Shown here piece after piece: positions 1 through 46,680 of a stretch of 64,000 bases of DNA (the stretch's first letter is position 1; every line of letters starts with the position of its first letter). The position numbers and the translations under genes are program-made. Origin of the DNA: Candidatus Parvarchaeota archaeon (GTDB lineage Archaea; Nanobdellota; Nanobdellia; WJKC01); assembly GCA_017608505.1 (NCBI GenBank), contig JAFCFT010000001.1, positions 5,833 to 69,832 of the forward strand, given 5' to 3'. Under the pieces are notes generated by a model, which had not been told where the DNA came from, did not search any database, and worked only from the letters and a program-made list of their open reading frames with translations.

Positions 1-1
1 A

Positions 2-727
2 GATAGGACTGTTGATATTGCTAAAAGATACGCGAAAGTATATATTTATGGACCAGATCAATCAAAAGAAAGAGTTTTTGGTGGTCCTTACCAGAGAAAT
101 TATGGTGTTTCAAAAGCAAAGGGTAAATATATTTATTATGTTGATTCTGATATGGAATTAACGCCAAATGTAATTAAAGATTGTGTTTATTTAATAAATA
201 AAAAGAATGCTGATGCAGTAATCGTCCCTGAGGAATCGTTTGGTAAAAGTTTTTGGGCTAAGTGTAAATGGTTAGAAAGAAGATGCTATTGGGGTGATGA
301 TTTGATTGAAGCTCCAAGATTTATTAAGAGGGATGTTTGGAATAAATTAGGTGGTTTAGATGTCAAATTAGGTGGAGGTGACGATTGGGATTTCCACAGG
401 AGATTAAAATTGAATGGTTATAAAATAGTAAGGACTAAAGAACTTGTAATGCATAATGAAGGTGAATTAACTTTAAGAAAATTATTTAAAAAGAAATTTA
501 TCTATGGTAAAACAGTTACTAATTATTTTAAAAAGCATAAAGATAAAAGTACAAATATTAAACAATTTACTATCTTTAGAAAAGCTTACTTTAAAAATTT
601 GAAACTCTTTTTAAAACATCCAATACTTTCTATTGGTTTTTTAATTATGAGGTTTACTGAATATTTCGCTGCATTGTCAGGGATAATTTATTCAAAATTT
701 CATAAGACTACTGCGGTGATTAAATGA
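2..727 (+). CDS. Family-2 glycosyltransferase (GT2), 5' end cut by window edge
   Basis: Frame open from base 2 (DRTVDIAKRYAKVYIYGP...QRNYGVSKAKGKYIYYVDSDMEL): GT-A core with DxD-type DSD. Hydrophobic C-terminal anchor. Stop overlaps next start (ATGA at 724-727). Confidence 0.75.
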   Translation, partial: DRTVDIAKRYAKVYIYGPDQSKERVFGGPYQRNYGVSKAKGKYIYYVDSDMELTPNVIKDCVYLINKKNADAVIVPEESFGKSFWAKCKWLERRCYWGDDLIEAPRFIKRDVWNKLGGLDVKLGGGDDWDFHRRLKLNGYKIVRTKELVMHNEGELTLRKLFKKKFIYGKTVTNYFKKHKDKSTNIKQFTIFRKAYFKNLKLFLKHPILSIGFLIMRFTEYFAALSGIIYSKFHKTTAVIK

Positions 728-1893
728 GAATTGCAATAATGTTGGATAGACTATCACAGGGAGGATATGCAAAAGCAGCTTGCGAAGAAGTTAGAAATTT
801 AAATAAAATGGGGCATAAAGCTGAATTATTAATAATCATGCGTGAAAAATATGATGAGTATCGATTTAATGATTTTCTTAAAGGAATAAAAGTGCGTTTT
901 TTATCAGACTATTTTCCAAAAATTTTTAGAAAGTCATTTAAGTTCCCCTTTTTTTCGTTTTTTTCACTTTTTCATTTAACAAGTTCGTTAGTAGTCCACA
1001 AATCTCTAAAGAAAAACGAATTCGACATAATAGTCGCACATGGTACTTACACATATTTTGCAGTACATGCAATATATAAAAAATTAGGGATTCCATATGT
1101 TTTATTCATTTGGGACCCTATAAGTTATATTTTACCAAAAGCGTACAAAAAAGGAAGTGTGTTGAGATTTGTGTTGCCTATATTAACTTTTTTTGGAAAA
1201 AAATTAGATAAAAAAATAATAAAGGATTCTCTAGGCATTATTACTTGTTCAAAGGTCCATATGAATTTTTTCAAGCAATTATCTAAAAATAAAGTGTATG
1301 TTTCTTATCCTGGCTGTTTTCCAATGAGTAAAATAACTCCACCTGGAGATTACATACTTGCGGTTACTAAATGGGATATAGGGAAAAGACCAGATATAAT
1401 TCTTGATGCTTATAAATTACTACCTAAAAAACTTAAATTAATTGTTGCTGGATTTTGGGTTAGAAAATCAGTAAAAGACGATTTTCTTAAAAAAGTAAAT
1501 GACTATGGTTTATCAGATTGGGTTGAAGTACAAGGACCAGCTGACAAGAAAAAATTAAGGGAGTTGTATTCTAATGCAAGAATATTAATACATCCTTTAT
1601 TCGAGGCTTTTGGGATGATTTGTTTAGAGGCGGCTGAATGTGGTTGTTCTTTTATAATACCTAAGGGTTCTGGTGTTAATGACATATTCAGTAGTGATGA
1701 AGCTTTTTTTCCTAAGGAACATGATGTGATTTCATATGCCAAATATTTATCTATGGTTATAAATAATAAAAAATTAGCAGAAGTTATGGGTAAAAGAGCA
1801 TGGCATAAATCGAAAAAATATACATGGATGGAACATACAAAATCTTTATTAAAGTGTGTAAATAGTGTATTAAAATGCACAAGAAAAAGATAA
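724..1893 (+). CDS. Family-4 glycosyltransferase (GT4, GT-B fold)
   Basis: C-terminal Glycos_transf_1-type signature HPLFEAFGMICLEAAECGCSFIIP (E-x7-E). ATGA coupling to upstream GT2. Confidence 0.75.
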   Translation: MRIAIMLDRLSQGGYAKAACEEVRNLNKMGHKAELLIIMREKYDEYRFNDFLKGIKVRFLSDYFPKIFRKSFKFPFFSFFSLFHLTSSLVVHKSLKKNEFDIIVAHGTYTYFAVHAIYKKLGIPYVLFIWDPISYILPKAYKKGSVLRFVLPILTFFGKKLDKKIIKDSLGIITCSKVHMNFFKQLSKNKVYVSYPGCFPMSKITPPGDYILAVTKWDIGKRPDIILDAYKLLPKKLKLIVAGFWVRKSVKDDFLKKVNDYGLSDWVEVQGPADKKKLRELYSNARILIHPLFEAFGMICLEAAECGCSFIIPKGSGVNDIFSSDEAFFPKEHDVISYAKYLSMVINNKKLAEVMGKRAWHKSKKYTWMEHTKSLLKCVNSVLKCTRKR

Positions 1894-3077
1894 GAATCTT
1901 AGTGTTGTCCTGGCATCCAGAATCTAGAAATTTAATTGCAGGTGGTTTTGTTAAAGCACAAGAAATACTAAAAAGGCGTCCAAAAAATGTTAAAGTATTA
2001 TTAATTGACAAAAAAGGTTCTCTATTAAGATGTGATAAGAGAATTGAGTACTCAATTCCAAGAGGAATAATAAAAATTAGAGATAGGTCATTTATCTTGG
2101 GAAGAGTTTTAGAATGGTTCTACGTTTTTTTATATTTGCTTTATAAGCAAATTTCATTAAATAAATATTATGATGTTGTATATATTCCAACAGCCGAATT
2201 AACTTTTTTAACTCTGTCTGCTGTTATTTCTAAGTTGTTTACAAGAAAAAAAATTATTGCAGATATTCTAAATATTAAAATATTTGGTGGTAATGTTATT
2301 GGTTTTTACCGCATTTTAAGATCAAGAGGATATTCTACTTTTTCTTCTTTAGTTGGTTCTATTGGTACTTTTATTTCAAGAAAATTACTAATATGGTCTA
2401 TAAATAACGCGGATAAAGTTTTAACGATCAGTAAAGATTTAAAAAAAGATTTAACGCGTTATGGCGTGAAAAAAAATATATCAGTCATCCCTGTTGGGAT
2501 AGACATTGCTCTGTATAAAAAAATTAAAAAGCAAAAAAAAATATACGACGCAATTTTTATTGGCAGGCATACTCCTGAAAAAGGCATATTTGATTTAATT
2601 GATGTCTGGAAACTTGTTGTTAAAAAGAAAAAAGATGCTAAGTTAGTTATGGCTGGTTTATGCGATAGTGTTACAAAAGATAAATTAAAAAGGCTTATTA
2701 AAAAAAATAAATTGGAAGATAATGTCTTTTTGATGGGCGAAGTTACCGAATCAAGTAAAATTAAACTTCTCAAACAAAGCAAAACACTTTTATTTTTAAG
2801 CCACATAGAAGGTTGGGGAATCGTTCCATTTGAAGGTCTTGCTTGTGGGCTTCCAGTAATTGCCTATAATCTTCCAGTTTATAAAGAGACAATTAAAGAG
2901 TGTAAGTCCGTCTTTCTTTTTAAAAAAAAGGATTATGCAAATATTTCTAAAAAAGTAGTTAATTTATCAAAAAAATATTCGAAATATAGATTTGAAAGTA
3001 TCTCTTATGTTAAAACTTATTCATGGGATAAAATTAGTGTAAAACAATATTCAGTAATGACTTGTGATTTTAAATGA
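1875..3077 (+). CDS. Family-4 glycosyltransferase (GT4)
   Basis: FIGRHTPEKGI...SHIEGWGIVPFEGLACGLPVIAYN (E-x7-E motif). Overlaps upstream gene by 19 nt. Confidence 0.75.
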   Translation: MHKKKIRILVLSWHPESRNLIAGGFVKAQEILKRRPKNVKVLLIDKKGSLLRCDKRIEYSIPRGIIKIRDRSFILGRVLEWFYVFLYLLYKQISLNKYYDVVYIPTAELTFLTLSAVISKLFTRKKIIADILNIKIFGGNVIGFYRILRSRGYSTFSSLVGSIGTFISRKLLIWSINNADKVLTISKDLKKDLTRYGVKKNISVIPVGIDIALYKKIKKQKKIYDAIFIGRHTPEKGIFDLIDVWKLVVKKKKDAKLVMAGLCDSVTKDKLKRLIKKNKLEDNVFLMGEVTESSKIKLLKQSKTLLFLSHIEGWGIVPFEGLACGLPVIAYNLPVYKETIKECKSVFLFKKKDYANISKKVVNLSKKYSKYRFESISYVKTYSWDKISVKQYSVMTCDFK

Positions 3078-3141: not shown

Positions 3142-3924
3142 TTAAATTTTTTTTGCCGAGATAATGATTCCAGCATCTAAAATTCTAAACCTGTGGAATA
3201 TCGAGTCAAGCAGTATTATAATACCTAATAGCGTTAAATGATTATCAAAAAATGAATTGCCTCCAAATATTGCAACACCTTCATTTTTAGTTATTTTGAA
3301 ATTATTCCGTTTTAGTAAACTGACTAGTTCTTTATTAGACATTACAGATATATGTCCTTCTTCGTCCCATACCTCTTTAGTGATGTTCTTTCCCAAGCGA
3401 TAAAATTCGTATGCTCTATATTTGTCAATGTTAATTATCTTGTTTAGTTTAAGTTTCTCTATTAATTGGTTTTTATTTGGTGTGGTGATTATTAGCGTAC
3501 CGCCTTTTTTTAATTTTAAATAGCACTGTTTTATGAGTTTTTCTGGATCCTTAATATGTTCGATAACCTCTGAACACAGTATTACATCAAAAAAACAATT
3601 CTTGTAAGGAAGTTTTTTATTTAAATCTCCAACTTTAAATTTTACATTTTTAAAATTTCTAAATCTTGCTAGCTCTTTTGCTCTCTTTATTGCATTTTTT
3701 GAAATATCGATTCCATAAAAATCTATATTTTTATTGTTCAAGCCAAGCATGAAAATATCTGTTCCTATATAGCAACCCATATCTAAAACTTTAATTTTTT
3801 TCTTGTTTTCGATTGTTTTATCAAATATGTCTTTAATTTTTCTTTTTAATCTATTTGTAAAATAAATTTCTGATACTGTTCTGTAAAAACTTGTTCCTTC
3901 GCATATTTTATTATAATCTAACAT
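3142..3924 (-). CDS. Class I SAM-dependent methyltransferase
   Basis: Motif I VLDMGCYIGTD, post-I YGIDIS, DVILCSEVIEHI, GGTLIITTPN. Sits inside the GT cluster. Confidence 0.75.
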   Translation of the reverse strand: MLDYNKICEGTSFYRTVSEIYFTNRLKRKIKDIFDKTIENKKKIKVLDMGCYIGTDIFMLGLNNKNIDFYGIDISKNAIKRAKELARFRNFKNVKFKVGDLNKKLPYKNCFFDVILCSEVIEHIKDPEKLIKQCYLKLKKGGTLIITTPNKNQLIEKLKLNKIINIDKYRAYEFYRLGKNITKEVWDEEGHISVMSNKELVSLLKRNNFKITKNEGVAIFGGNSFFDNHLTLLGIIILLDSIFHRFRILDAGIIISAKKI

Positions 3925-5039
3925 TTTAATACCTCCTTAAACATTTTATTGAATCCCTTTGCCGTGTTACTAACAGAAAAATTATTTTCAACGAATTTCC
4001 TTCCATATATGCCTTTCTTAATAATAAATTTATAATCCTTTCTCCATTTATTATAAACATATTGGATTTTGTTAGCTAATTCTTTAGCATTTAATTCTTT
4101 TAGAAACCACCCATTTTTCCCATTTAAGATTAATTTATTTGGTCCAGGAATATTTGAGCTAATTACTGGTAATCCGCAGGAGTTTGCTTCTGTTATAATT
4201 AAGCCGAATGTTTCTTGCCTAGAAGGTGCCAATAATACATCATTGTTCTGATATATTTTAACAATATCATCTACGAATCCTAAATAATTAACTTTGTCAT
4301 TTTTGGCAAGCTCTTCAACCAATCTTCTTTTTTCACCCGATCCAACAATATTAAATTCAACTTTTGCTTCTGGATTTTCTTCTAAAAATCTTTTAATGCC
4401 CTCCACTAATATGTCAACTCCTTTTTGTTCAGCAAGTCTTCCAACGAATAGAAATTTTAGTCTTGAAGTTTTTTTAAATTTTTTCAATTTAAAATCGTCT
4501 GTATTACTTCCTGAAGGAATGTAGTATACTTTTTTAATACCCCATTTTTTCATAATATTTTTGTCCTTATCATTTAAAACATGAATTGCATCAAATTTTT
4601 TAAGCACCCTTTTTGTAATTAATTTGACGTATGTATTGTGAATTTTGTTTTCAAAGAAGAGTGGGGCATGGATACCACATATCATTGGTTTTTTTACTTT
4701 TCTTTTAACGAGATACATTAATATATCTTGGAATATAAACGAGAAATTAAAATACAAAAGATCATACTCTTTAAAGATATTTGCTATTTCTTTGATATTG
4801 TGTACTTTTGGTAGCAATATATTATTCCTAACAAATTCATTGATTCTGTAATGTTTTACATTTTTTATTTTTCCTTTAACTTCTTTATCACTCCATCTTT
4901 TAATAGGGATGAAATTTGTGTCGATTATGTCTATTTGCATATTATATTTATTGATTAAAATATTTGACAGTTCTGAAAACCAATTTTCACACCCGCCACC
5001 ATAGTTTAATGACATAGGTGTATAAAATATGGCTTTCAT
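3918..5039 (-). CDS. Family-4 glycosyltransferase (GT4)
   Basis: FVGRLAEQKGVDIL...PSRQETFGLIITEANSCGLPVISS (E-x7-E). Confidence 0.8.
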   Translation of the reverse strand: MKAIFYTPMSLNYGGGCENWFSELSNILINKYNMQIDIIDTNFIPIKRWSDKEVKGKIKNVKHYRINEFVRNNILLPKVHNIKEIANIFKEYDLLYFNFSFIFQDILMYLVKRKVKKPMICGIHAPLFFENKIHNTYVKLITKRVLKKFDAIHVLNDKDKNIMKKWGIKKVYYIPSGSNTDDFKLKKFKKTSRLKFLFVGRLAEQKGVDILVEGIKRFLEENPEAKVEFNIVGSGEKRRLVEELAKNDKVNYLGFVDDIVKIYQNNDVLLAPSRQETFGLIITEANSCGLPVISSNIPGPNKLILNGKNGWFLKELNAKELANKIQYVYNKWRKDYKFIIKKGIYGRKFVENNFSVSNTAKGFNKMFKEVLKC

Positions 5040-5293: not shown

Positions 5294-7930
5294 ATGCATA
5301 AAAAAAATTTAGAACTGTTTGTATTATGTTTCTTTGTTATTATCCTATATTTTAATAAAATTTATTTTAATTTAGAACCTATTACGTGGGGCGATTGGTC
5401 TTTTGGATTTAATAACAAACTAAAGGATTATTTTAGAATGCCATCTGCATGGGATAATTCTGTGAATGGAGGTTATCCTACATTTATTAATTTGTATTAT
5501 TATCCCATGTTTTTTTTATTTTCACTAATAGGACTTCTAGGATTTGATTCATCAGTAACTACTCGTTTATTTTTTTATTGGCCATACCCTATTGTATCTA
5601 TAATTTCAATGTATGTTTTTTCCTATTATTTTTTTAAAAATAGAAAAGTAAGTTTTATTGCATCCTTTATTTATTCTATTAATCCTTATTCTTTAGTATT
5701 CTTGTCCGGAGGACATATGACTGTTGGGATGGGAAATGCTTATGCGCCTTTGATTTTGTATTTTTTTATAAAAAGTATTAGAGAAATTAAATTAAAATAT
5801 GTAATCATCTCCGGATTGCTTTCAGAATTCGTTTTTATTTACGAACCAAGAATATTCTTTTTAATATTTTTGTTTCTTTTATTACCATTTTGTTTATTTT
5901 ATTCAATAAATAAAAAATTTAATTTAAAAAAATTATTTTTTAATACTAAAGTTCTAGTTGGGATCATATTTATTTTATTATTAACTAATTTTTATTGGAT
6001 TTTGCCCCTCATAAGATTTGGTCAAGCGGAATTATTTAATTTTCCAGAGGGTTATAAACAACCCACATGGGTAAGTGCTTTAAGTTATTCTAATTTTTAC
6101 AATATGTTTTTCTTTGTATCAGAATTTTGGTTGTCTAATAATTGGTGGGGTGTTTTTAGTGAGAGATCATTACCAATAATTTATGTTATGTCTCCTATTT
6201 TTTTAATAATGCCTGTTTTATTATTTCTTCCTATTTATAAAATGAAAGATAAAAAAATAATATTTTTAACTATTCTATTGTTAATTTCTTTTTTTTTGGT
6301 GATTGCAGCAAATTCACCCCTAAAATTTTTATACATTCTCTTATTTTTGTTTCTTCCCGGATTTAACATGTTTAGAGACCCTTCTAAATTTTATTTAGTA
6401 TATAATTTTGCTGGTTCCATATTGATTGGTTTTGGTGTTATGATTCTTTTTAAATTTTTAAAAAGAAAATTAAATATCAAAAAATTTGGTTTTTTGTTTA
6501 ACAACTATCATATACTTTGGATTATGTTGTATATAGTTATGTTGTTGCCAGCTACATTAGAATTACCTTACGGAATGTTTAGTACACATCCATATTCTAC
6601 AGAAAAAATTAATATGAAAAATTGGTTGTTAAATAATTCAGCTCCTCATTATAAGACTCTATGGGTTCCTGATTATCAACATTTTATTATGCATGATTCT
6701 TTACATCCTGAAATCTCTCTAAGATCATATAGTTATTTTGGAGAATATATTAAAAGAAATATTGAAAATATTACTATGTTTGGCAAATTACTTTCACCAT
6801 TAAATGTCAGATACATTTTTTTAAGTCCTGACGAAGACGATTATCAATATTCTAATATGAAAAAAAATGATTTTTTAAAAATATTAGAAAAAGATTCGAG
6901 TATTCAAAAAATAAATGATAACATCTTTGAAAATAAATACGCCTTTGATTTATTGTCGCTAAAACCAAACGCATTTTATCTAATTGGTGATTTAGGGTCA
7001 TATATTAAATTATTAAATAAAACAAAATTAAATAATAATGTTGTTATTTTTTTTGGAGAAACTGATTTTGTAAATACGGATACTAATGTAGATTATTACA
7101 TAATCGATAATTCTTCTTGGAGTGCTGACGATTTAATTCTTTCATTAGTTAATGATAGTTATAAAACGTACTTTTGGAATTTGGCTGGTTATTTAACAAG
7201 GAACAATAATATTTTATATAAGGATTTTTACCCTGATGCAAATTATATTTATGGACAATTTTCAAAACATGGCTTGACCAAACATGTTGGAAAAACTATA
7301 TTGAGTATTAAGCATTATGTAAATTCTTCTGGAGTTTATCAAATATGGATTCGCGGATTCTCAGGCATAAATAGGGGCACGATATCTTTTAATGACGCTA
7401 AAATTGTTTTTAATTCTTCATTAAACAAACTAAAATGGTTTTATTTGACTAAAGTTACATTGAATAAGGGTGAAAGTTTTCAATTAAACTTAGAACTTCA
7501 AGGGATTCTTGATCTAGATAGTGTAGCGATAGTTCCTGAAAATATTGTTGAAAATATAAAATCTAAAATAAAACAAAAAATAATTAATCTTTCTGAATTC
7601 GATAATCTATCAAATGAGAATGATGTAATTTCTAAATTAAAATGGTATTATATTTCACCTTCTGAATATAAATTTATAATTGAAAATGCAAGTAGTAAAT
7701 TAATTTTAATATTCGGTAATAATTATAATCCTTATTGGCGAATGTTGATAAATAATGAAACATATCCTTCAATAAAGTGTTATTACACCCTTAATTGCTT
7801 TCCAATTAATATAAGTAGCTCTTACTTAGAAGGGAGAATTTATTTTTTACCTCAAAGTTATGTTGATTTAGGATTCCTGATTTCCATAGTTTCATTTATT
7901 GTGTTGCTTGGTCTTCTGGTTATTTTATAA
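5294..7930 (+). CDS. Large polytopic membrane protein (878 aa), putative GT-C-like glycosyltransferase or glycan polymerase; function unknown
   Basis: About 12+ hydrophobic segments in the first ~430 aa, then a ~400-aa hydrophilic N-x-S/T-rich domain and one terminal TM. The N-terminal block is homologous to ORF 12064-15726 (INPYSLVFLSGGHMTVGMGNAYAPLILYFF vs LNPLVFNKIVAGHVTYLFSYMLAPLLFLAF). Confidence 0.55.
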   Translation: MHKKNLELFVLCFFVIILYFNKIYFNLEPITWGDWSFGFNNKLKDYFRMPSAWDNSVNGGYPTFINLYYYPMFFLFSLIGLLGFDSSVTTRLFFYWPYPIVSIISMYVFSYYFFKNRKVSFIASFIYSINPYSLVFLSGGHMTVGMGNAYAPLILYFFIKSIREIKLKYVIISGLLSEFVFIYEPRIFFLIFLFLLLPFCLFYSINKKFNLKKLFFNTKVLVGIIFILLLTNFYWILPLIRFGQAELFNFPEGYKQPTWVSALSYSNFYNMFFFVSEFWLSNNWWGVFSERSLPIIYVMSPIFLIMPVLLFLPIYKMKDKKIIFLTILLLISFFLVIAANSPLKFLYILLFLFLPGFNMFRDPSKFYLVYNFAGSILIGFGVMILFKFLKRKLNIKKFGFLFNNYHILWIMLYIVMLLPATLELPYGMFSTHPYSTEKINMKNWLLNNSAPHYKTLWVPDYQHFIMHDSLHPEISLRSYSYFGEYIKRNIENITMFGKLLSPLNVRYIFLSPDEDDYQYSNMKKNDFLKILEKDSSIQKINDNIFENKYAFDLLSLKPNAFYLIGDLGSYIKLLNKTKLNNNVVIFFGETDFVNTDTNVDYYIIDNSSWSADDLILSLVNDSYKTYFWNLAGYLTRNNNILYKDFYPDANYIYGQFSKHGLTKHVGKTILSIKHYVNSSGVYQIWIRGFSGINRGTISFNDAKIVFNSSLNKLKWFYLTKVTLNKGESFQLNLELQGILDLDSVAIVPENIVENIKSKIKQKIINLSEFDNLSNENDVISKLKWYYISPSEYKFIIENASSKLILIFGNNYNPYWRMLINNETYPSIKCYYTLNCFPINISSSYLEGRIYFLPQSYVDLGFLISIVSFIVLLGLLVIL

Positions 7931-9085: not shown

Positions 9086-10183
9086 TTATGTTAAGAATTC
9101 TTTTATACACTCACAGATAAATAAGCATTCCTCTTTTTTTAATTCAGGAAACATTGGTAAAGATAAAATTTTCTTAGACAAGTCTTCTGTTATTCTATAA
9201 CTTTTATTATTAAATTCTTTATAAGCGTCTTGTAAGTGTATTGGAATGGGATAATGTATTCCGGTAGATACTCCTTTATTTTGAAGGTATTTTTGGAGTT
9301 CATCTCTATTATTGCACTGTATTACATATAAATGATAAACATGTTCTGAATCTTTATGTTCGAATGGTGTTTTAATAGTATTAATTTCTTTTAGGAGCTT
9401 AGTATACATTTTAGCATTTTCTCTTCTTTTTTCATTCCATTTATCCAAATATTTTAATTTAACATCTAAAATTGCTGCTTGCAGAGTGTCAAGTCTACTA
9501 TTTGTGCCTTTAATTATATGATGATATTTTATTTTTTGACCATAGTTTCTAAGCAATTCTATTTTTTCAGCTAGTTCTTCATTATTTGTTGTCACAGCAC
9601 CACCGTCTCCATACGCTCCCAAGTTTTTCCCGGGATAAAAACTAAAACACGCTATGTCCCCAATACTTCCCACTTTTTTGCCTTTATATTTTGCTCCATG
9701 TGCCTGGCAAGCGTCTTCAATAACAAATAAATCATTTTCTTTCGCAATTTCTAAAATTTCATCCATTCGCGCAGGTTGACCATACAAATGTACTGGAAGG
9801 ATGGCTTTTGTTTTATCCGTTATTGCTTCTTTGATTTTTGAAACATCTATATTATAATCTTTTGGATCTACATCTACGAATACTGGTTTTGCACCACATG
9901 CTGAAATTGCCAAGGCCGTTGCTATATACGAATTCGGAGGAGTAATTACTTCATCTCCTTTGCCAATTCTTATTGCTTTTAATGCAAGAGTTAATGCGTC
10001 TGTGCCGGATCCAACTCCTATACAGTATTTTGTATTACAAAGTTTTGCAAAATTTTTCTCAAAATTAAATACCTCTGGTCCAAGAATAAAACTTGTGCTA
10101 TCAATTACTGATTGGATTGCGCTATTAACTTCTTCTTTAATTGATATATATTGTCTTTTTAGATCAACAAAATTAATTTTCAT
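9086..10183 (-). CDS. DegT/DnrJ/EryC1/StrS-family PLP-dependent sugar aminotransferase (WbpE/GnnB-like)
   Basis: [66 protein letters not shown]; [18 protein letters not shown] (PLP-lysine region). Confidence 0.85.
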
Positions 10184-10185
10184 AG

Positions 10186-26680: not shown

Positions 26681-26681
26681 T

Positions 26682-28669: not shown

Positions 28670-28694
28670 ATGAAGTATGATAAATTCATACCTT

Positions 28695-38341: not shown

Positions 38342-40747
38342 ATGAAATTTAAAGTAATGGTTAATCATGCAATACTTTTTGCGCTGCTGTTTGTTGTCTT
38401 TAGGCTTTATTTGCTAAAATTCATTTATTTGCTTGTCTTGCCTGGGTTTTGCATATTGTTGCTAACATCAAAATTTGATTTTAAAAAGACACTTTTGCTC
38501 TCTTTTCCAGCTTCTCTTGTATTGTACATTTATCCTTACTTTTTGATAACAAGGTCTTTGCTTCCAATCCCACCGTGGATTTACTTGCTTTTGCCTCTAG
38601 TGCTTGCTCTTGTTGTTTTTAAGAAAGGGTTGTTTGAATTAGAATTTAAAAATGCTATAAATTATAAAGATCTTTTTTATTCTATTTTGCCTGTTGCTAT
38701 TTTGTTAATAGTTTATTATCCATATTTTACAAGAGGGGAAGTTTCGCTTACAGCAGGGACTAACAGCCTTTTATTTCAAAAAATAAATGTTGAAAGGATT
38801 TTAAACGAGTGGAAGGTGCCAATATGGACGCAGGCAGAATATGCAGGCAGCCATTTTTATTATACATATCCCCCTTTGACTTATGTGACAACAGCGCTTC
38901 TTAATGCAATTCCAACAGAGGCTGTTAATTATACAACCAATTTGACTGTGGTCGCGCTTTATTTGTACATGTTGTTTGCTTCATACATGCTTTTTAGATC
39001 ATTAAAATTAGGAAAAAGCGCTTCAGTCCTTGGCATTTCAATAATGATGGGGGTTCCAATTTTAGTTGGCGAGCCAACTTACTCAGGAAATATTACTATG
39101 GCATACATGTTTTCTTTGTATCCTGCAGCACTTTACGGCTTTTTTAACATGTTTAAGGAAAAAAGGATAAAAGACGTGATTTTTTTATCATTTACTGTAG
39201 CGTCTTTTGTGATTGTTTATCACCACATAAGCTACTTTATGTTAATTCCTGCTTTTGTTACAGCAGGCGCATATTTTCTTGTAGGCAAGGAGAAGAAATT
39301 ACTTCTTAAAAATGCAATTGTGTTTTTTTCAGTAATTGCCGTTTTAATTGGCGCTTGGGCGCTAAGACTTATTTTTACAAGCGAGTTTGTAACAACTTCA
39401 GGAGTAGAAGGCTCGTGGAACAAGCCATTAAGCAATTTTACAGAGTTCTTAAGTTTTATTGCAGCAACTGGGAGAGAGACAGACGACTTATACAAGCAAG
39501 TAATTACATTAACTCCTCTTTTCTTTTGGCTTGGATTCGTATCTATGTTTTTGGCGCTAAGAATTGAAAACTCAAAAATAAAAATATTAAATACTGATTT
39601 GCTTCTTCTTGCTTACTTCGCATTCTTGTTTTTTTTGATTATTTGCGAGATATTTCCGTTCCACACAATGATTCCATTAAGGGACAGATTTTATCGCATC
39701 TTTAGATACTGGGAAGTTCTTGTGCCTTTGTTTGCTTTTGGCATTGGAAGGCTTTATGAGAATGCAAGCAACATGTTTGGGTACAAGCCATTGCTGTTTG
39801 GCGCATTTTTGCTGATATTTGCTCCAATGATTGCAATGTCAAAAGATAATGCGTCTAATTGGCTTGTTGAGAACGCAATTGTAACTGACAAGTTTTCAGA
39901 GCTTACGAATTTGTTGAGAAATCTTCCTGATAGGGTTGCTTTATTTGGAGGGTATGGCCCTGCAATGATTCCAGCAATACAGAATTGGAGTGGCAAGGCC
40001 ATGCTTAAGGGCTACAATTTCCAGAGGCATGCTTCTAAACTTGTTTATGAAAATTTGCTTAATCCTTTAAGCGAGGCAAGCATGGATTATATAAAAAATG
40101 ATGTAACGCCTGTAAAAGCATACAACATATTTCAAGTTTCAGGCACAAACACTTTAGTTTACTTTGCATGCGACCAAAAAGGAGCTAATGCTCTAAACTT
40201 AACAGCGTCTTATAATGGGTATGAATTAATTGCGCAAGGCAGATGCCTTGTTGTGTTGTCTTTAAGACCTAAAAGCAGTCTTGTTGAAAAAGTTAAGCTT
40301 GCATGTGTAAATGCCAGTGATGATGTCAAAGCAAAAGTTCTTGATTATGAGTTAGGATACAAAGTCATAATGCCTTATTATGAGTTAAACAAAAGCGAGT
40401 GCGCTTTTGTTGTAGACAAAGACTTTGTGCTAAAAGGGAATTATTCTATCTTTAATTACTTAAGTGAAAGCCTGGATTACAAGTTCTTAAGTGACGAATC
40501 ATTGATAATTAATGCCTCGCCAGGATGGATTTTATTTAAAGGCGCTTATTTTCCAACAATGCACGCGTACCAAGATGGAAAAGAGCTTGTTGTGTTGCCG
40601 ACTTATCATGGAATGACATTGATAAAGTCTTTAAGTGATAAACAAATATTATTGGTGCACAAACCTCATTATTCAGAAATCCTTGGATTGCTTTTATATC
40701 TTGGATTTATTGTTTTGTTATTTGCGATTCATTTACATAATAAATAA
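38342..40747 (+). CDS. Large polytopic membrane protein (801 aa), GT-C-like; function unknown
   Basis: Many TM helices over ~500 aa. HFYYTYPPLTYVTTALL (hPPL-like motif). About 300-aa C-terminal soluble domain and a terminal TM. Confidence 0.5.
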   Translation: MKFKVMVNHAILFALLFVVFRLYLLKFIYLLVLPGFCILLLTSKFDFKKTLLLSFPASLVLYIYPYFLITRSLLPIPPWIYLLLPLVLALVVFKKGLFELEFKNAINYKDLFYSILPVAILLIVYYPYFTRGEVSLTAGTNSLLFQKINVERILNEWKVPIWTQAEYAGSHFYYTYPPLTYVTTALLNAIPTEAVNYTTNLTVVALYLYMLFASYMLFRSLKLGKSASVLGISIMMGVPILVGEPTYSGNITMAYMFSLYPAALYGFFNMFKEKRIKDVIFLSFTVASFVIVYHHISYFMLIPAFVTAGAYFLVGKEKKLLLKNAIVFFSVIAVLIGAWALRLIFTSEFVTTSGVEGSWNKPLSNFTEFLSFIAATGRETDDLYKQVITLTPLFFWLGFVSMFLALRIENSKIKILNTDLLLLAYFAFLFFLIICEIFPFHTMIPLRDRFYRIFRYWEVLVPLFAFGIGRLYENASNMFGYKPLLFGAFLLIFAPMIAMSKDNASNWLVENAIVTDKFSELTNLLRNLPDRVALFGGYGPAMIPAIQNWSGKAMLKGYNFQRHASKLVYENLLNPLSEASMDYIKNDVTPVKAYNIFQVSGTNTLVYFACDQKGANALNLTASYNGYELIAQGRCLVVLSLRPKSSLVEKVKLACVNASDDVKAKVLDYELGYKVIMPYYELNKSECAFVVDKDFVLKGNYSIFNYLSESLDYKFLSDESLIINASPGWILFKGAYFPTMHAYQDGKELVVLPTYHGMTLIKSLSDKQILLVHKPHYSEILGLLLYLGFIVLLFAIHLHNK

Positions 40748-42101
40748 TTGCTCTAGGGTTTGCTGGATTTGGATATGCTTTTATCGGCGCAAAAACTGGC
40801 TGCGACAAATTATACGCATAATCAGGATGATGCTCGTATATGCTTGCCATAACATATTTTATGCTTTTGTTTGCAATCAATTCGTAAAAGGCAGTTTCAT
40901 TCTCAGGAAAATTATATGTATTCTTTCCACTATAATATGTAATTTGCGGCTGGCTTGCAGAAATAATGTTTTCTGCAGGTAGTTGGGACAAGTATTCTCC
41001 TGCAAGTTTCACATCTTCGTATGAGCCTGCAGATAATTGCACTCTTTGATAGCCATTAATTGAATTCTCAAGCACTATGAGTATTGATAAGCTTACTAAG
41101 AATATTGTTAAGTGCTTTTTTGAGAAGACATTGCATATTAAGGCTATTCCAATAACGCTTGTAACACTTAAGAAAGGCAACAAGTGAATTAAAAATCTAA
41201 ATTCTTTTACTTGCGTTATTAATGAATAAAATGATAAGAATACTGTTAAATTAAGAAGCACAAATAAATTATTCTTTTTGTTTGCTTTAAGTACGAGCCC
41301 AAGCAAGCCAAGCCATATTGTCAGCCCCATTATTATGCCGTAATTGAAAAACATTGTTGTTATGTAATACAAAGGACCTCCTTGCTGGGCTCCGCCACTT
41401 GATTCTAAGTTGAATTTTAGGAATTCTAATGCAGAATGTAGTGGGTTTCCATACATAACTAATTCATAGACGCCCAGTATTGAAAATCCTAAAATAAATC
41501 CTAAAAGCCAGAAGTAATTTTTGTATTTAAAGTTCTTTGTTAGAAGCAAGTATGCAAAATATACAAGGATAAGCACCCCGCTTGTGAATCTGATATCAAA
41601 TGCGATTCCTAAAAGCAAGCCAGATAATAAATTCTGTTTGAAATCTTTATTTATGCTTTTTATGAAATAATATGAACTTGTTGCCAGGAAAAATGCTGAT
41701 GGGATGCCCAGCAATATTCTAAAAGAGTAAAAGAAAAAAACCCATTGCGCGCTTGTTATTAGCGCTGCTGCAAGCGCATATCTTTCGCTGTATAATAGCC
41801 TTATTAATTTGTATGTCATGAAGATAAAGCCTAGTGAAAATAAGACGTTAATAATCCTTACCCATAACTCATTAAAACCTATTGGAAAGCTTAAGGCTGC
41901 TAAAAGCAATGGATAAAATATGCTTCTGCCTTCCCACCACCCTGTTGTTGGCGAGCCGGTAAGCAAGTGCTTTGTCATCAATAAATACTGTGTTTCATCC
42001 CACCAAGCAGCTTTGTTTACATTTATTAGGGCAAATCTTGGAATTGCTGCAAAGATAAGTATTAGTCCTATCCAGAAGTATTTGTGGTCTGTTATGCTCA
42101 T
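40707..42101 (-). CDS. GT-C glycosyltransferase, ArnT/PMT_2-like
   Basis: Start set at ATG 42101 (MSITDHKYFW), forming ATGA with the upstream stop. First loop NKAAWWDETQYLLMTKHLL (DE motif) then SIFYPLLLAAL. About 11 TM helices. Confidence 0.6.
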   Translation of the reverse strand: MSITDHKYFWIGLILIFAAIPRFALINVNKAAWWDETQYLLMTKHLLTGSPTTGWWEGRSIFYPLLLAALSFPIGFNELWVRIINVLFSLGFIFMTYKLIRLLYSERYALAAALITSAQWVFFFYSFRILLGIPSAFFLATSSYYFIKSINKDFKQNLLSGLLLGIAFDIRFTSGVLILVYFAYLLLTKNFKYKNYFWLLGFILGFSILGVYELVMYGNPLHSALEFLKFNLESSGGAQQGGPLYYITTMFFNYGIIMGLTIWLGLLGLVLKANKKNNLFVLLNLTVFLSFYSLITQVKEFRFLIHLLPFLSVTSVIGIALICNVFSKKHLTIFLVSLSILIVLENSINGYQRVQLSAGSYEDVKLAGEYLSQLPAENIISASQPQITYYSGKNTYNFPENETAFYELIANKSIKYVMASIYEHHPDYAYNLSQPVFAPIKAYPNPANPRAIIYYVNESQITKQ

Positions 42102-43189
42102 ACAAACACCCTTGATATTACAAATGCAAGCATGCAAAATATGCTTACAATAATTATCATGAATAAAGTTATGTACTTTTCTTTTTTGACAAGCCTCATG
42201 GCAATGTGCGTCCATGAATATGTTTTCTTGTATTTTGGTTTTAATGTTCCGTCTGGCTGCAGTATTCCTAGACTTGATGCTTGGAATTTCATTTTTGCTT
42301 TTAATGCGAATTCAACAAACCATGGGATAAACGCAATTGCTGCAAATTTTTCAATATTGCCTATTATTATGCTTGCAGCAAATGTCGAGCCAATTAGGTA
42401 TGTTAAAGAATCCCCTGGCAAGTATTTTGCAGGGTGCTTATTATAATATAAAAATCCTAATAAAGCGCCGGCCATGATTAGGGCAATTATTGCTCCTTCA
42501 ACATTGCCGTATAATAGTGCATACGCGCCTGTGCTGCCAAGCAAGACTGCTCCGATTCCAGCTTCCAAGCCGTTCATTCCTGCAAGCATGTTTGTTGCGT
42601 TAGAACAGAATATGATTATTAAGGGGACTATTAAGAGCGGATAAAGCAGTCCGAAGTTCACTTCGCCAAGAAATGGAATGCTTACTGTGGATGTGCCTGC
42701 ATTTACAACCATTAATGGAAAAACAGCAAGAGCAGACAAGAGCAATTTCTCCCCTTGCCTAAGCCCTATGCGCGTATCGAGTTCTCCTTTGTGTGTTTTT
42801 TGTTCAGGCAGTATTATGATATCATCAAACAATCCTGTAAGCAAAGTCATGAGCAAAATTGTTGTAACGCCTGCATATATAAGCGTTAGATTTGTGGGAG
42901 CCCCAGAAATAAATGTTGTATATGCTATGTATATTGACACGCCGAGCATGAAGCCGATCACTACAGGGATTCCTCCTGATGTTGCCATTTTTGGCTTGTT
43001 CTTTTTTTGCACATCCATTGCAACTAAGCCTATTAATTCAAATTTCTTTTTGGCAAAATTAGTCATGAATAAAGTGAATATGAGCGCCATGTATGCGCTT
43101 CCAAGTATAGACCCATATTTTCCTATTAGAATGAAAATTACAGCGCAGATAATTCCTGCAATAATAATTAATTTTAATTTGCCACTCAT
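42098..43189 (-). CDS. aglH: UDP-GlcNAc:dolichyl-phosphate GlcNAc-1-phosphate transferase (AglH/Alg7, MraY/WecA superfamily)
   Basis: LLTGLFDDIIILPEQ (DD motif); CSNATNMLAGMNGLEAGIG (N-x-x-N-x-x-AG-x-NGLE as in Alg7/AglH). About 10 TM helices. Confidence 0.8.
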   Translation of the reverse strand: MSGKLKLIIIAGIICAVIFILIGKYGSILGSAYMALIFTLFMTNFAKKKFELIGLVAMDVQKKNKPKMATSGGIPVVIGFMLGVSIYIAYTTFISGAPTNLTLIYAGVTTILLMTLLTGLFDDIIILPEQKTHKGELDTRIGLRQGEKLLLSALAVFPLMVVNAGTSTVSIPFLGEVNFGLLYPLLIVPLIIIFCSNATNMLAGMNGLEAGIGAVLLGSTGAYALLYGNVEGAIIALIMAGALLGFLYYNKHPAKYLPGDSLTYLIGSTFAASIIIGNIEKFAAIAFIPWFVEFALKAKMKFQASSLGILQPDGTLKPKYKKTYSWTHIAMRLVKKEKYITLFMIIIVSIFCMLAFVISRVFV

Positions 43190-43217: not shown

Positions 43218-45869
43218 TTAAGCATTTGGGCTTGCATTGCTTAGTTCGCGGGCGCTTGCAGCTTCAAGTTCTTCATAATTGATTTTGTATATTTTAATAT
43301 CTGTTGGGTCGAATTGACTGACTGTTGCAGTTATGCTTAATGGAGTTGTGTTGTCATCATACACTAGTTCAAAACCAGGCACTGTCAAGTTAAGAATATA
43401 AAGTTTTGTCATAAGTCTTTCACGAAGATTCGAAGGAATATGTATAATTCCTTGCTGCACAAAATTGTAGCATGCTGGAATGCCGTCGCTGCTTACGTCA
43501 GTGCAGCCTATGTTTGTCTCGCACTTGCAGTTATATATCATTATGTGCTGTTCATTAAGTTTTGCATTGTATATTGCTGCAAGCACAGGCCCGAATTCTT
43601 GATTGTCGCTAAACGGGACTAGTATGTTCACTATGTACGTGTCGCTGTCTGCTAATACTTTGTTGTTTGGAAGTATCATGTCTGTGCCTATTTTGCCGTA
43701 TCCTGTGACAGGGGCAAATATAAGCAATGTTGAATAATTTTCAGGCATGTATATGCTGTTTTTTGTTTGTCCCTGATAAGTGTAGACAGAATAATATCCT
43801 GGCCTTCCTCCTATATTTGCCATTTGCACATACTTTAGTACATCATCATCTACTATCAGGAAATAATCAGGTCTTTTCACCCCTTGAGTCGTATTTTTGG
43901 CAAACTGATTAAGCGACCACAAGATTTCTGTTGAATTGTATCCGCTGAATAAATAACCTCCTATTATCTCATCCCATTTGACTATGTAGTTTCCTCCGTC
44001 AACTGTTGTAGTTCTGTTGCCGACTGTCTGCACCCAGTATCCGTAGTCCCACCAGTGCGTGAACACTGCATCGCTTGCAGTATTGTTTTGTACCCAATCC
44101 ATTGCTTTTTGCCAGTCATCTGTAAAGCTAGGATAATACTTGTCTGCGCCTTGAAGTATTGTCATAAATGCCCAGGAGCCAACAAGTATCACTATTAAAT
44201 ACATTGAATATGCATATACTTTGTCTTTTAAAATGCGCTCGATTAGCTCTTTTGATCTTGTTACGCAGTATGCTGAAAGCACTAAAGCGACTGGCGTTAA
44301 TGCAAAAAGAACTCTTATTGCCCCTCTTGCGCCTATAATGCTTAATGAAAACCATGCAATTAAAAGCATGTTTGCAGGGCTTATTGTGTTCCACTTTTTA
44401 GACGCACTACTTTTTATGTAATCAAGCGCAAGAACAATCAAATACAATGGAAGAAAGTAAATATATATTGCACCAAGAAATGCATTGAGCGTGTTGTATT
44501 TTGGGTCAGTGGAATATTTGGAAAACATGAACATTAAAATAAATCCTGCAAATCCAAGGATTTGAGGAATTGCTTTATACTTGAATTTTTCTAAAGTCTT
44601 TTGATAATATAAAATACTTCCTATGACAAATAATGGTATAAACCATGAAAGCCTGTGCCACCAGTCTACGCCTCGCTGGGGGTCAAAAAAGTATGGGGCT
44701 TGATTTTCGCTGACAGAAACGCAAAAAGGGCAGGTGCCAAATGGAAATAATATTGTTTCATAAGCGCTTTTTAGCTGTTCAGTAATGCTAAATATGCCTG
44801 TTATTTCTGCAATGATGAGCAAAGGTATTGACACTATTACTAAAAACACAAGAAAATGCGTTGGCTTTTTTGATTTAAAGAATGCATCATGAAATATTCT
44901 TAATGATATTATTATCATAGCAATAAATGCGCTTACAAATATTTGATGCTCGTATAATTTAAAACCGCCGTAGCGCAGTGTAAGCGTTGCATTCATTAAT
45001 AATGTGGGAATTGCCCACAAGAAAAATGAGAGCGCATATTTTTTGTTTAGTCTGTTTATTAACGTAAGACCTATAAACGTTAATGCAACGCTGTGAAACA
45101 AGAAATTAGCTCCGCCCCATGTTAGCGCATTAAGTCCTCCTAAGACGCCTGAGAGCGCACCCCATGTTAATACGCCTTTTGTATTTTTTGCTTTAAGAGA
45201 TTTTAGCAATGCCCATGTCATTGAAAACCAAAAGACCATTGCCAGAGCTTCTTTGTCGCCAAATCCTGCTATTGTTCTAAATAAATAGCTTGGTGCGAAT
45301 GCCAAAAATAATGATGCAATGAGCGCAGTCTGTTTGTTTGTAAATTCTTTTGCCATAAGGTAATAAAAAATCATTCCAATTGCAAATGCTATCACAGGAT
45401 ATATTATTGCAGCATTAACTACTTTAAAACCAGGAACTAAAGGGCTTATTATGAAATATATTAACGCAATGAAATATGTGTGCGCTTGCTGTTCTTGAAA
45501 TGTCTTAAAGCCAAGCGGGAAATATCTCATTTCGTCAATTTCTGGCAAATAGCCATGCTGCACTAAGTATTTTGCATATCTATAAAATACGTAAGGGTCA
45601 AGCCCTAAAGGCCTGTCTTTGTAATTAGGTATGCTAAGCGTTCTTATCCATGATGATACAAGTATTATAGATATGAGTCCTATGTAAAAAAGCATTTTTT
45701 TATTTTCTTTTAAAAAAGAAACAACAGCTTGAAAATCAATTTCTTCTTCAAAGCCTTGGCTTCGCTCTTCAGACTTTTTTAAAGGCTTTTTTTCGGTTTT
45801 TTTAAACTTTTTCTTGATGCCTTTCCAGATGTTGCTTAAGTCAATTTCGTCAAATTCTTCTTCACTCAT
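43218..45869 (-). CDS. aglB: Dolichyl-(mono/di)phosphooligosaccharide-protein glycosyltransferase AglB (STT3 homolog)
   Basis: LGLDPYVFYRYAKYL (compare STT3 FDPYFNYR), AGFGDKEALAM, FTHWWDYGYWVQ with WWDYG at 44040-44054 (minus strand). 13-TM type N-terminal domain plus a ~280-aa C-terminal globular domain. Confidence 0.85.
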   Translation of the reverse strand: MSEEEFDEIDLSNIWKGIKKKFKKTEKKPLKKSEERSQGFEEEIDFQAVVSFLKENKKMLFYIGLISIILVSSWIRTLSIPNYKDRPLGLDPYVFYRYAKYLVQHGYLPEIDEMRYFPLGFKTFQEQQAHTYFIALIYFIISPLVPGFKVVNAAIIYPVIAFAIGMIFYYLMAKEFTNKQTALIASLFLAFAPSYLFRTIAGFGDKEALAMVFWFSMTWALLKSLKAKNTKGVLTWGALSGVLGGLNALTWGGANFLFHSVALTFIGLTLINRLNKKYALSFFLWAIPTLLMNATLTLRYGGFKLYEHQIFVSAFIAMIIISLRIFHDAFFKSKKPTHFLVFLVIVSIPLLIIAEITGIFSITEQLKSAYETILFPFGTCPFCVSVSENQAPYFFDPQRGVDWWHRLSWFIPLFVIGSILYYQKTLEKFKYKAIPQILGFAGFILMFMFSKYSTDPKYNTLNAFLGAIYIYFLPLYLIVLALDYIKSSASKKWNTISPANMLLIAWFSLSIIGARGAIRVLFALTPVALVLSAYCVTRSKELIERILKDKVYAYSMYLIVILVGSWAFMTILQGADKYYPSFTDDWQKAMDWVQNNTASDAVFTHWWDYGYWVQTVGNRTTTVDGGNYIVKWDEIIGGYLFSGYNSTEILWSLNQFAKNTTQGVKRPDYFLIVDDDVLKYVQMANIGGRPGYYSVYTYQGQTKNSIYMPENYSTLLIFAPVTGYGKIGTDMILPNNKVLADSDTYIVNILVPFSDNQEFGPVLAAIYNAKLNEQHIMIYNCKCETNIGCTDVSSDGIPACYNFVQQGIIHIPSNLRERLMTKLYILNLTVPGFELVYDDNTTPLSITATVSQFDPTDIKIYKINYEELEAASARELSNASPNA

Positions 45870-45870
45870 T

Positions 45871-46680
45871 TTACATGCCCATTGAAATGTATGTTTCTAT
45901 TATTGCTCCGGCAATTATTAATACGCTTGCAAGCAATATTAAATCTAATGAATCAAGCAAGACTTCTTTAAATTTTTTGCCCCTCCTAATTATGCCTGCA
46001 CTTATTATACCCCCCGCAATTCCTGCAAGAAAATATGCAGTTATTTCTAAAATTCCGTGGAGCATGTACCTTCCAAATCCAAGAGGGACCACGCCAAAAT
46101 AAGACCACACATCAGACAAATTAACCTTTATTGCATTTCCAATCGCAGTGCCTAAGACGCTTGCGTTCCATGTTAGTATGAAAAGCGCGCCAGAGCCGTA
46201 TATGAGGCTGAAAAGCAGGCAGAATGCCATGACTTTAAAATTGTTTAAAATTATCATTCTCAATAAAGAAGGGTTTGTTGCCCTTCCTTGAACATTGCTG
46301 CTTATTGCCTTGATTGTTTTTATTTGCTCATTAAAAACAGCGCTTGCAAGGCTGTCTGGAAGCAGCACATACCATGTTACATAAGCAAGCATCATTCCTA
46401 AGAAGAGAAAGAAAAAAATTCCCAGTATGTCTTTGTGTTCTCCCACAAGCCATGCTTTTTCTTTTATTTTTAAGTCTTCTTCAGCTTCTTTTTTAAGCGA
46501 ATTTACAATTAATGGAAGCCCTGCCATTGTTGTTAAAAACACCATTGTAAGACCTGTGTTGCTTGGAAATATCCACAGTCCTAAAAGCAGGCCTACTGAC
46601 GCGTAGATAAAGCCCAAGACTGCCATGAATTGCGGTTTTTTCCCTGCTTTTATAGGATTTATGAGCGATTCAAGAACCAT
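45871..46680 (-). CDS. SpoIIM/DUF95-family integral membrane protein
   Basis: RYMLHGILEITAYFLAGIAGG resembles the SpoIIM PHGxxE...G motif. About 6 TM helices. Overlaps orc1/cdc6 by 11 nt and lies 1 nt from aglB. Confidence 0.55.
   Translation of the reverse strand: MVLESLINPIKAGKKPQFMAVLGFIYASVGLLLGLWIFPSNTGLTMVFLTTMAGLPLIVNSLKKEAEEDLKIKEKAWLVGEHKDILGIFFFLFLGMMLAYVTWYVLLPDSLASAVFNEQIKTIKAISSNVQGRATNPSLLRMIILNNFKVMAFCLLFSLIYGSGALFILTWNASVLGTAIGNAIKVNLSDVWSYFGVVPLGFGRYMLHGILEITAYFLAGIAGGIISAGIIRRGKKFKEVLLDSLDLILLASVLIIAGAIIETYISMGM

Follow-up and report, generated by a model that had tools for sequence, protein, structure and literature searches.

In Haloferax volcanii, N-glycosylation proceeds through AglJ/AglD, AglR, AglS and AglB, and the final mannose is passed from dolichyl-phosphate (Dol-P) mannose by AglS, a GT-C-type glycosyltransferase (GT) acting at the outer face of the membrane. 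In Methanococcus and other archaea, AglB clusters with GT2 and GT4 genes, a flippase and sugar-modifying genes, and the glycans of Methanococcus contain 2,3-diacetamido sugars. To our knowledge, no characterised N-glycosylation pathway of archaea employs more than one outer-face transferase in addition to AglB. AglS of Haloferax is a Dol-P-mannose mannosyltransferase, which adds mannose onto the N-glycan of the S-layer protein (PMC4973528). In Gram-positive bacteria, teichoic acids are glycosylated by CsbB/GtlA (GT2), GtcA (flippase) and YfhO/GtlB (GT-C) (PMC5836110, PMC8035078), a three-component system in which YfhO is an established outer-face GT-C that works with a GtrB-like GT2 (PMC5836110). 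Here we analyse a glycosylation locus in a 64,000-nucleotide stretch, referred to below as the window, of contig JAFCFT010000001.1 from a Candidatus Parvarchaeota archaeon (assembly GCA_017608505.1, positions 5,833 to 69,832 of the forward strand). The locus encodes eight polytopic GT-C-type proteins, and we read it, with a modest lean in favour of this view, as a composite island from a DPANN-type archaeon, devoted to glycosylation of the cell surface and serving more than one pathway.

About 35 sugar-handling genes lie within 46 kb of the window (base 2 to 46680). The first GT2 gene already has an open frame at base 2, which means that the locus extends leftward past the window. A preliminary description of this DNA had stated that nearly every gene up to ~46.7 kb is glycan-related, and the Pfam searches bear this out: they recover eight GT4 and five GT2 enzymes, an AglH-type transferase, a Wzx flippase, a methyltransferase, a B12-radical SAM (S-adenosylmethionine) enzyme and a set of sugar-supply genes (DegT, a hexapeptide acyltransferase, a GFO oxidoreductase, a 2-epimerase, PGM/PMM and two NTP-transferases). 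The eight polytopic open reading frames (ORFs) listed in that description were all found in place, and we designate their products A (5294-7930), B (12064-15726), C (21944-23908), D (23898-25355), E (36734-38317), F (38342-40747), G (40707-42101) and H (43218-45869). Like the Haloferax system, the locus is archaeal, combines an AglJ-like GT2 with PMT-like GT-Cs and would use AglB to transfer the main glycan. Unlike Haloferax with its one outer-face transferase, it offers six candidates from three families, and its only recognised flippase is a single Wzx, with no AglR-type flippase recognised. It differs from clusters of the Methanococcus type in its much larger extent of at least 46 kb, in carrying an additional STT3 paralogue besides six more GT-Cs, and in a mosaic GC content.

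Five of the eight proteins exceed Pfam cut-offs for GT-C families. Protein H (883 aa, minus strand) is an AglB/STT3 oligosaccharyltransferase (OST), with 75 bits against the STT3 profile (cut-off 24.5) and the motifs GLDP in loop 1, DKE, SVSE and WWDYG. Protein C (654 aa, plus strand) is a short STT3/AglB paralogue scoring 30.7 bits against the same profile; it carries GNDP after the first transmembrane helix (TM1), GVSE and WWDHG, and phmmer connects it to H at 1.6e-9. Both thus combine an STT3 domain with WWDxG, the signature by which we assigned proteins to GT66. Neither reaches the cut-off of 450 of the NCBIfam archaeo_STT3 profile (TIGR04154), where H scores 83 bits (1.4e-23) and C, far below, 46 bits (2.7e-12); the two proteins belong to the STT3 family but fall outside that archaeosortase-linked subfamily.

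The other three, D, E and G, pass a PMT or PMT_2 cut-off and have a DE motif in loop 1. The PMT-like protein D (485 aa, minus strand) scores 30.2 bits against Pfam PMT (cut-off 22.7), with HIDEP 4 residues past TM1 and HPPLAE in loop 1. Protein E (527 aa, plus strand) is of the PMT_2 type (49.1 bits, cut-off 26.1; PMT 29.2 bits) and has DADEG 4 residues past TM1. Protein G (464 aa, minus strand) scores 57.9 bits against Pfam Glyco_transf_22 (cut-off 23.8), the GT22 or Alg9-like family, over profile positions 53-409 of 414, and has WWDET 7 residues past TM1; its PMT_2 score is similar (50.4 bits, cut-off 26.1), so that the assignment is not exclusive. Among the non-OST GT-Cs other than G there was no match to GT57, GT58 or GT59-type profiles, the Pfam scan of the polytopic proteins found none of the MIR domains of eukaryotic PMTs, and single-sequence searches of D, E and G against PDB sequences returned nothing meaningful. 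The longest ORF for G reaches 42215, 114 nt upstream of the ATG at 42101. The latter is the likely start, as it fits the orthologue alignment and avoids a 118-nt overlap with AglH. We rejected the upstream extension: what looks like its conservation in tblastn is due to the coding sequence of AglH, which is conserved and lies in a different frame.

Proteins A, B and F gave no Pfam hit at E ≤0.01, no meaningful NCBIfam match and no direct match to PF09586, PF11847 or PF10131, which only some of their homologues match; nor did single-sequence searches of the three, or the A-family profile, find anything meaningful among PDB sequences. Their assignment comes from AlphaFold models, which cover A and F, and from profile comparison, which also covers B.

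Protein F (801 aa, plus strand) belongs to a rare clade of the YfhO/PTPS-related/AftD clan: it has five close homologues, and its family comprises 129 representatives among 1.84 billion proteins. Its sequence includes a YPPL motif, its outer domain is rich in beta structure, and a transmembrane helix (TM) lies at the C-terminus. The F-family profile matches proteins annotated as YfhO, PTPS-related, AftD and PMT_2, and against PDB sequences it finds AftD (2.8e-11) and AftA (2e-5). The AlphaFold model (predicted local distance difference test, pLDDT, 88.9; predicted TM-score, pTM, 0.92) recovers AftD first in Foldseek (9e-10), followed by STT3, PglB, DPY19, Pmt4, ALG6 and EmbB. We considered a transporter identity for F and rejected it: transporter folds appear in Foldseek only at E >0.06 and with a probability of at most 0.13.

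Protein A (878 aa, plus strand), likewise YfhO/AftD-like, consists of an N-terminal TM module, an outer beta-sandwich domain resembling carbohydrate-binding modules (CBMs) and one C-terminal TM. Its model, built with 18 homologues (pLDDT 74, pTM 0.76), is closest to AftD 6w98 in Foldseek (2e-8, TMq 0.53), followed by STT3, AglB, PglB and DPY19, and its C-terminal beta domains match CBM6/35 modules. Some A homologues match YfhO, GT-C_AftD, PTPS_related, CBM_4_9 and Laminin_G_3. One homologue occurs in a bacterium of the candidate phyla radiation (Woesebacteria), and the family may cross domains. On a groundwater-metagenome contig, an A-like gene lies within 16 kb of sequence together with an AftD-like GT-C, a PMT_2/GT22-like GT-C, Wzx, a GT2 and methyltransferases; glycan loci with several GT-Cs are thus found again in this material.

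Protein B (1220 aa, minus strand) shows the tripartite architecture of AftD, with an N-terminal TM module, an outer domain of ~680 aa and four C-terminal TMs. It matches A in blastp (1.8e-6) and a PF11847 (GT-C_AftD)-annotated protein in phmmer (4e-19), and hhalign of the B family against the F/YfhO family gives a probability of 99.9 (E 6e-35). The B-family profile reaches AftD in the PDB at 0.004, and there is a weak match to NCBIfam MmpA. Together, these results show that all eight polytopic proteins are GT-C-type: five by Pfam, A and F by model and Foldseek, and B by profile. The preliminary description had made this claim for the whole set and had named a transporter or protease match, or lack of the fold, as evidence to the contrary; no such result was obtained for any of the eight.

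As in the Gram-positive three-component system, the locus pairs profile-level relatives of YfhO with a GtrB/CsbB-like GT2, and we propose that polyprenol-P-sugars are used at the outer face. Unlike that system, A, B and F miss the Pfam YfhO model, no GtcA/GtrA homologue was found with them, F lacks the aspartate, and the host is an archaeon with no teichoic acid. Mycobacterial AftD (PDB 6W98) comes first among the structures matched by A and F and gives the best sequence-profile match for the F and B families. It shares with A, B and F the succession of an N-terminal GT-C module, a large beta-sandwich or CBM-like outer domain and one or more C-terminal TMs, and R39-x-D41 of B parallels the essential K39 and D41 of AftD. 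However, the identity to AftD is 9-11%, the three proteins measure 801-1220 aa against an AftD average of ~1381 aa, and neither genes of the decaprenyl-P-arabinose pathway nor any sign of binding to an acyl carrier protein are present.

All motifs quoted in the preliminary description (HIDEP, DADEG, WWDET, DPYVFYR, HPPL and YPPL) are present in the translations. In a hydropathy scan, seven of the eight proteins have D or DE 4-11 residues past TM1, following an N-terminal tail rich in K/R. Given this tail, the positive-inside rule predicts the first loop to be outside the cell; the proposed external location of the acidic motif is supported by this prediction for these seven, F being the exception, with no Asp there. 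The residue is D34 in A, nearly invariant in its family, and in B it is D41 of the motif R39-H-D41, again nearly invariant. Proteins E, G and H share their first-loop motifs with their orthologues. Protein F has four helices ahead of the region resembling the first external loop (EL1), and an N-out arrangement would be consistent with the positive-inside rule. The C-terminal soluble domains contain nearly all of the N-X-S/T sequons (12/12 in A, 25/26 in B, 5/5 in C and 8/9 in H), a placement that would fit an outside location, with the count biased by the Asn-rich composition and the Asn-free TM helices. It may be that the GT-C enzymes are N-glycosylated in their turn.

Part of the locus is conserved among relatives. 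The gene order GT4, GT2, E, F, G, AglH, AglB (H), SpoIIM, Cdc6, FEN1 is kept, at 56-77% protein identity, in the locus's closest relative among public sequences, a 727-kb contig from a 'Candidatus Parvarchaeota archaeon' metagenome-assembled genome (MAG). This order recurs in a second related contig, where F is 39% identical, and in a third, which has an extra G-like paralogue and for which the AglH gene was left out of the comparison. The check for synteny proposed earlier thus came out positive: the four GT-C genes E, F, G and H stand in the same order in three related contigs, so their clustering is not chance. AglB genes at just 30% identity have no GT-C neighbours, and a metagenome scan using an AglB alignment yielded five loci only. 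The 727-kb contig also makes the earlier label of a small-genome archaeon reasonable, and the genome probably measures <1 Mb.

The base composition divides the locus differently. The window is AT-rich (GC 25-41%). The genes in its first 17 kb, which include A, B, GT4s and amino-sugar genes, have a GC content of 25-32%, lower than the 34-41% of the core and housekeeping genes. Another patch of low GC (~30%), at 28.7-34.7 kb, contains Wzx and three GTs. The low-GC segments are missing from the conserved block of the Parvarchaeota relative, which suggests that they are variable or acquired modules. With a conserved core and a GC-mosaic remainder, the 'super-locus' is thus a lineage-conserved N-glycosylation core plus variable modules. 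Such a mosaic is usual for surface-glycan loci.

Outer-face GT-Cs other than OSTs would need a lipid-phosphate-sugar donor. The GtrB/DPM1-like synthase of the preliminary description, given there without coordinates, is best assigned to the candidate Dol-P-hexose synthase at 18941-19807 (plus strand), an AglJ/DPM1/GtrB-like GT2 with a C-terminal TM at residues 262-280. The candidate is present as claimed, and its scores stay below the curated NCBIfam cut-offs, both for AglJ (TIGR04182; 3e-61, 207 bits, cut-off 325) and for the haloarchaeal Dol-P-hexose transferase (NF041391; 1.3e-25). The GT2 at 32577-33494 was ruled out for this role, its best matches being of the GalT1, chondroitin synthase, PgaC and TuaG type. 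No GtrA/GtcA-type small flippase was matched by Pfam in the window, including the five-TM ORF at 18314-18907 (plus strand), which belongs to no family (best Pfam match not below E 0.03). This ORF lies directly upstream of the AglJ-like gene. As a speculation, it could be a Dol-P-sugar flippase, a role that its position would suit.

The balance of enzymes bears on the side of the membrane at which the glycans are built. In the locus, 13 genes for soluble or peripheral GT-A/GT-B enzymes stand against six for non-OST GT-Cs, a ratio of two to one. The locus also encodes an initiating AglH/Alg7/MraY-family polyprenol-P N-acetylhexosamine-1-P transferase (42098-43189, minus strand; Pfam Glycos_transf_4, PF00953, 1.5e-29; 75% identity in the Parvarchaeota MAG) and a Wzx/MOP-type flippase for lipid-linked oligosaccharides (28695-30134, minus strand; Pfam Polysacc_synt 1.3e-23, Polysacc_synt_3 2.5e-20). 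Since 13 cytoplasmic-type GTs accompany AglH and Wzx, the usual set for making a sizeable dolichol-linked glycan at the cytoplasmic face and flipping it in one piece, most assembly is argued to be cytoplasmic. The proposal that glycans are elaborated mostly after translocation is overstated, also in that two of the eight GT-Cs are in fact OSTs, F lacks the Asp, and G is the one protein that resembles an ALG family, though not exclusively. The mix of GT-C families (two STT3, three PMT-like and three YfhO/AftD-like proteins, the latter with lectin-like domains) makes the other option put forward at the time, several acceptor classes, the better fit. For the six non-OST GT-Cs, the likelier role, as judged from their family relationships, is to decorate such acceptors at the outer face.

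The composite island that we favour would operate as follows. AglH would begin a dolichol-linked glycan at the cytoplasmic face, to be extended by 12 soluble or peripheral GT4/GT2 enzymes. Nucleoside-diphosphate (NDP) sugars would come from the PGM/PMM, nucleotidyltransferase and WbpB/E/D-plus-epimerase-like genes, and the methyltransferase and the radical-SAM enzyme would modify the sugars. Wzx would flip the finished lipid-linked glycan, and AglB (H), possibly with its short paralogue C, would move it onto Asn of surface proteins. Separately, the AglJ-like GT2 would charge dolichol-P with hexose, which after flipping would become the donor for the outer-face non-OST GT-Cs. The PMT-like D, E and G would probably add single sugars to protein Ser/Thr or to glycans already attached, as AglS does, whereas A and B, with their lectin-like outer domains and AftD-like build, would more likely decorate or extend a polymeric glycan. 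Protein F would be either a diverged enzyme with another base or a non-catalytic partner.

Several observations weigh against this reading. The topology prediction combines a hydropathy scan with the positive-inside rule and involves no dedicated predictor. The AglJ-like GT2 remains under its equivalog cut-off, no Dol-P-hexose flippase was recognised in the window, and the adjacent five-TM ORF matches no family. Protein C scores weakly against STT3 and has D-G-F at the would-be second metal-binding motif. Protein F lacks the family Asp together with other conserved polar residues. Each step of the mechanism is derived from family membership, and some cytoplasmic GTs may work towards other products.

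Among the alternatives, the one that fares best, though we still consider it unlikely, is that A, B and F, perhaps with some of the PMT-like proteins, build or decorate a separate surface polymer (a lipoglycan or exopolysaccharide) and do not act on glycoproteins, in the manner of the mycobacterial arabinan/mannan GT-Cs or of Gram-positive teichoic-acid glycosylation. Two or three unrelated pathways would then lie side by side. The closest structures and profiles, AftD and AftA, agree with this, as do the AftD-like architecture of B and the CBM-like domains of A and its homologues. The location of A and B in the segment of 25-32% GC that the relative's block lacks suggests a separately acquired module, and related loci with AftD-like and A-like genes have no AglB nearby. 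However, the Pfam results for the window include no polymerase, ligase (Wzy/WaaL-type) or chain-length regulator, and F keeps its synteny to AglH and AglB rather than to A and B.

It is also conceivable, but rather improbable, that a part of the GT-Cs is non-catalytic: F, and possibly C, would serve as scaffolds, lectins or accessory subunits in an AglB-centred complex, and fewer than eight of the proteins would be active outer-face transferases. The evidence comes mainly from F, which has Ala138 where 57 of 59 YfhO-like relatives carry Asp. The members of its close clade show A, E, G, L or R at this position, and equivalents of R355, R451 and D495 are gone from the clade as well. Yet F is still 63-39% identical among relatives and is fixed between E and G next to AglB. 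In C, the D-G-F sequence replaces a second motif of the DxD/DxE/DxH type. On the other side, the F clade retains E193, E244 and the YPPL region, one of its members has Glu at the Asp position, and the base residue varies among GT-C enzymes. The GT-C fold is there in F and the first-loop motif is not, which leaves two readings, an enzyme that has been re-wired or a pseudoenzyme. To a related proposal we likewise give a small chance: E, the Asp-less F, the GT22-like G, AglH and AglB would make up a line dedicated, in this DPANN lineage, to completing N-glycans at the outer face. This would be the prokaryotic equivalent of the stage in the ER (endoplasmic reticulum) lumen, an ALG9-like enzyme acting next to enzymes of the Alg7 and STT3 type, and F, as a partner of AglB, would be either a GT-C-derived pseudoenzyme or a re-wired enzyme.

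The parallel with the ER lumen, where ALG3/9/12 (GT58/GT22) and ALG6/8/10 use Dol-P-sugar donors, extends to the GT-C fold and to a first-loop acidic residue, the catalytic base in ALG3/9/12 (PMC13503287); G passes the GT22 cut-off over nearly the whole profile with DET past TM1, and adjoins genes of the Alg7 and STT3 type. That the locus encodes a full pathway of this kind, in which a short lipid-linked core is flipped and receives most of its sugars outside from Dol-P-sugar-dependent GT-Cs before transfer by AglB, is nevertheless the least probable explanation: it could draw on six non-OST GT-Cs and a candidate Dol-P-hexose synthase in a single locus, with E, F and G directly by AglH and AglB in four contigs, but the 13 cytoplasmic-type GTs suffice to complete a long glycan ahead of flipping, flippases of the Wzx type typically go with fully assembled repeat units, A, B and F resemble the polymer-acting AftD and YfhO and not enzymes of lipid-linked oligosaccharides, F lacks the Asp, and lumenal ALG enzymes are reported to be eukaryote-specific, with only distant PMT-like relatives in prokaryotes (PMC4973528). 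The ALG-like battery envisaged in the preliminary description is thus reduced to one of the six candidates, G, which is equally PMT_2-like.

The remaining genes of the locus include those of the cytoplasmic-type GTs. At its left end, a GT2 gene cut at its 5' end by the window edge (2-727, plus strand; Pfam Glycos_transf_2 1.1e-10, from profile position 39) is followed by two GT4 genes (GT-B fold), at 724-1893 (plus; Glycos_transf_1 3.5e-20) and 1875-3077 (plus; 2e-32). A SAM-dependent methyltransferase (3142-3924, minus; Methyltransf_31 9e-28) and a GT4 (3918-5039, minus; 3.4e-34) precede A, and another GT4 (7925-9073, minus; 2.4e-18) comes after it. Between this GT4 and B lie a DegT/WbpE-type sugar aminotransferase (9086-10183, minus; DegT_DnrJ_EryC1 8e-130), a putative WbpD-like hexapeptide-repeat acyltransferase (10186-10965, minus; Hexapep 1.3e-28) and a putative WbpB-like GFO/IDH/MocA sugar oxidoreductase (11017-12048, minus; GFO_IDH_MocA 1.5e-26). 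Beyond B is a UDP-GlcNAc 2-epimerase-like gene with an extra N-terminal region (15780-17225, plus; Epimerase_2 2e-33; NCBIfam wecB 7e-38, under the cut-off). We take the aminotransferase, acetyltransferase, oxidoreductase and 2-epimerase set to resemble the WbpE/D/B/I route to diacetamido sugars.

A PfkB-family sugar kinase (17206-18183, minus; PfkB 6e-7) lies upstream of the five-TM ORF, and the AglJ-like GT2 is followed by two GT4 genes (19811-20827, plus, 3.6e-29; 20808-21869, minus, 3e-22). The supply genes next to D are a phosphoglucomutase/phosphomannomutase (25352-26767, minus; PGM_PMM domains I-IV), a GlmU-like sugar-1-P nucleotidyltransferase with an LbH acyltransferase domain (26682-27857, minus; NTP_transferase 6.5e-31, Hexapep) and a further sugar-1-P nucleotidyltransferase (27839-28780, minus; NTP_transferase 2.6e-47). 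After Wzx come an HpnJ-like B12-binding radical SAM enzyme (30212-31687, plus; Radical_SAM and B12-binding; NCBIfam HpnJ 2.8e-71, under the cut-off), a GT2 (31661-32551, minus; Glycos_transf_2 1.9e-18), the GT2 at 32577-33494 (minus; Glycos_transf_2 4.8e-39), which has two C-terminal TMs, and a GT4 (33576-34730, plus; Glycos_transf_1 8e-21). The conserved core begins with the GT4 at 34727-35779 (plus; Glycos_transf_1 1e-34) and the GT2 at 35832-36695 (plus; Glyco_tranf_2_3 2.8e-24), which are 76% and 73% identical to their counterparts in the Parvarchaeota MAG.

The last gene of the locus encodes a six-TM membrane protein of the SpoIIM family (45871-46680, minus; SpoIIM 4.8e-19), in relatives always adjacent to AglB; both here and in two relatives, AglB and Cdc6 flank it. 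Directly after it, archaeal replication genes were identified by Pfam: Cdc6/Orc1 (46670-47719) and FEN1 (47803-48825). Further downstream, a 950-aa protein of the AMP/thymidine-phosphorylase type (56119-58971, plus strand; Glycos_trans_3N, Glycos_transf_3, PYNP_C) is split by an intein with a LAGLIDADG endonuclease at about aa 205-621. It is preceded by genes at 54562-55452 and 55449-56102, an IF-2B-family gene (ribose-1,5-bisphosphate isomerase-like) and a HAD hydrolase, and by their family assignments the three look like an archaeal AMP-salvage pathway. Scans of the window for Rfam families and tRNAs gave no matches.

The families described here and the logic of outer-face glycosylation are already known. 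What is unusual is the concentration of eight GT-Cs from three families in a tiny genome, the occurrence of archaeal YfhO/AftD-like proteins with CBM-like domains, and a conserved Asp-less GT-C clade fixed in place beside AglB. The archaeal YfhO/AftD branch with its lectin-like domains and the Asp-less clade are concrete targets for study, and the GT22-like G, fixed in place beside Alg7- and STT3-type genes, bears on the origin of the eukaryotic lumenal stage. The allocation of at least 46 kb to glycosylation in a small genome points to a heavy and varied surface glycosylation, as predicted from gene content and folds. The surface of this archaeon is likely sugar-coated in several ways, which would fit organisms living attached to other cells.

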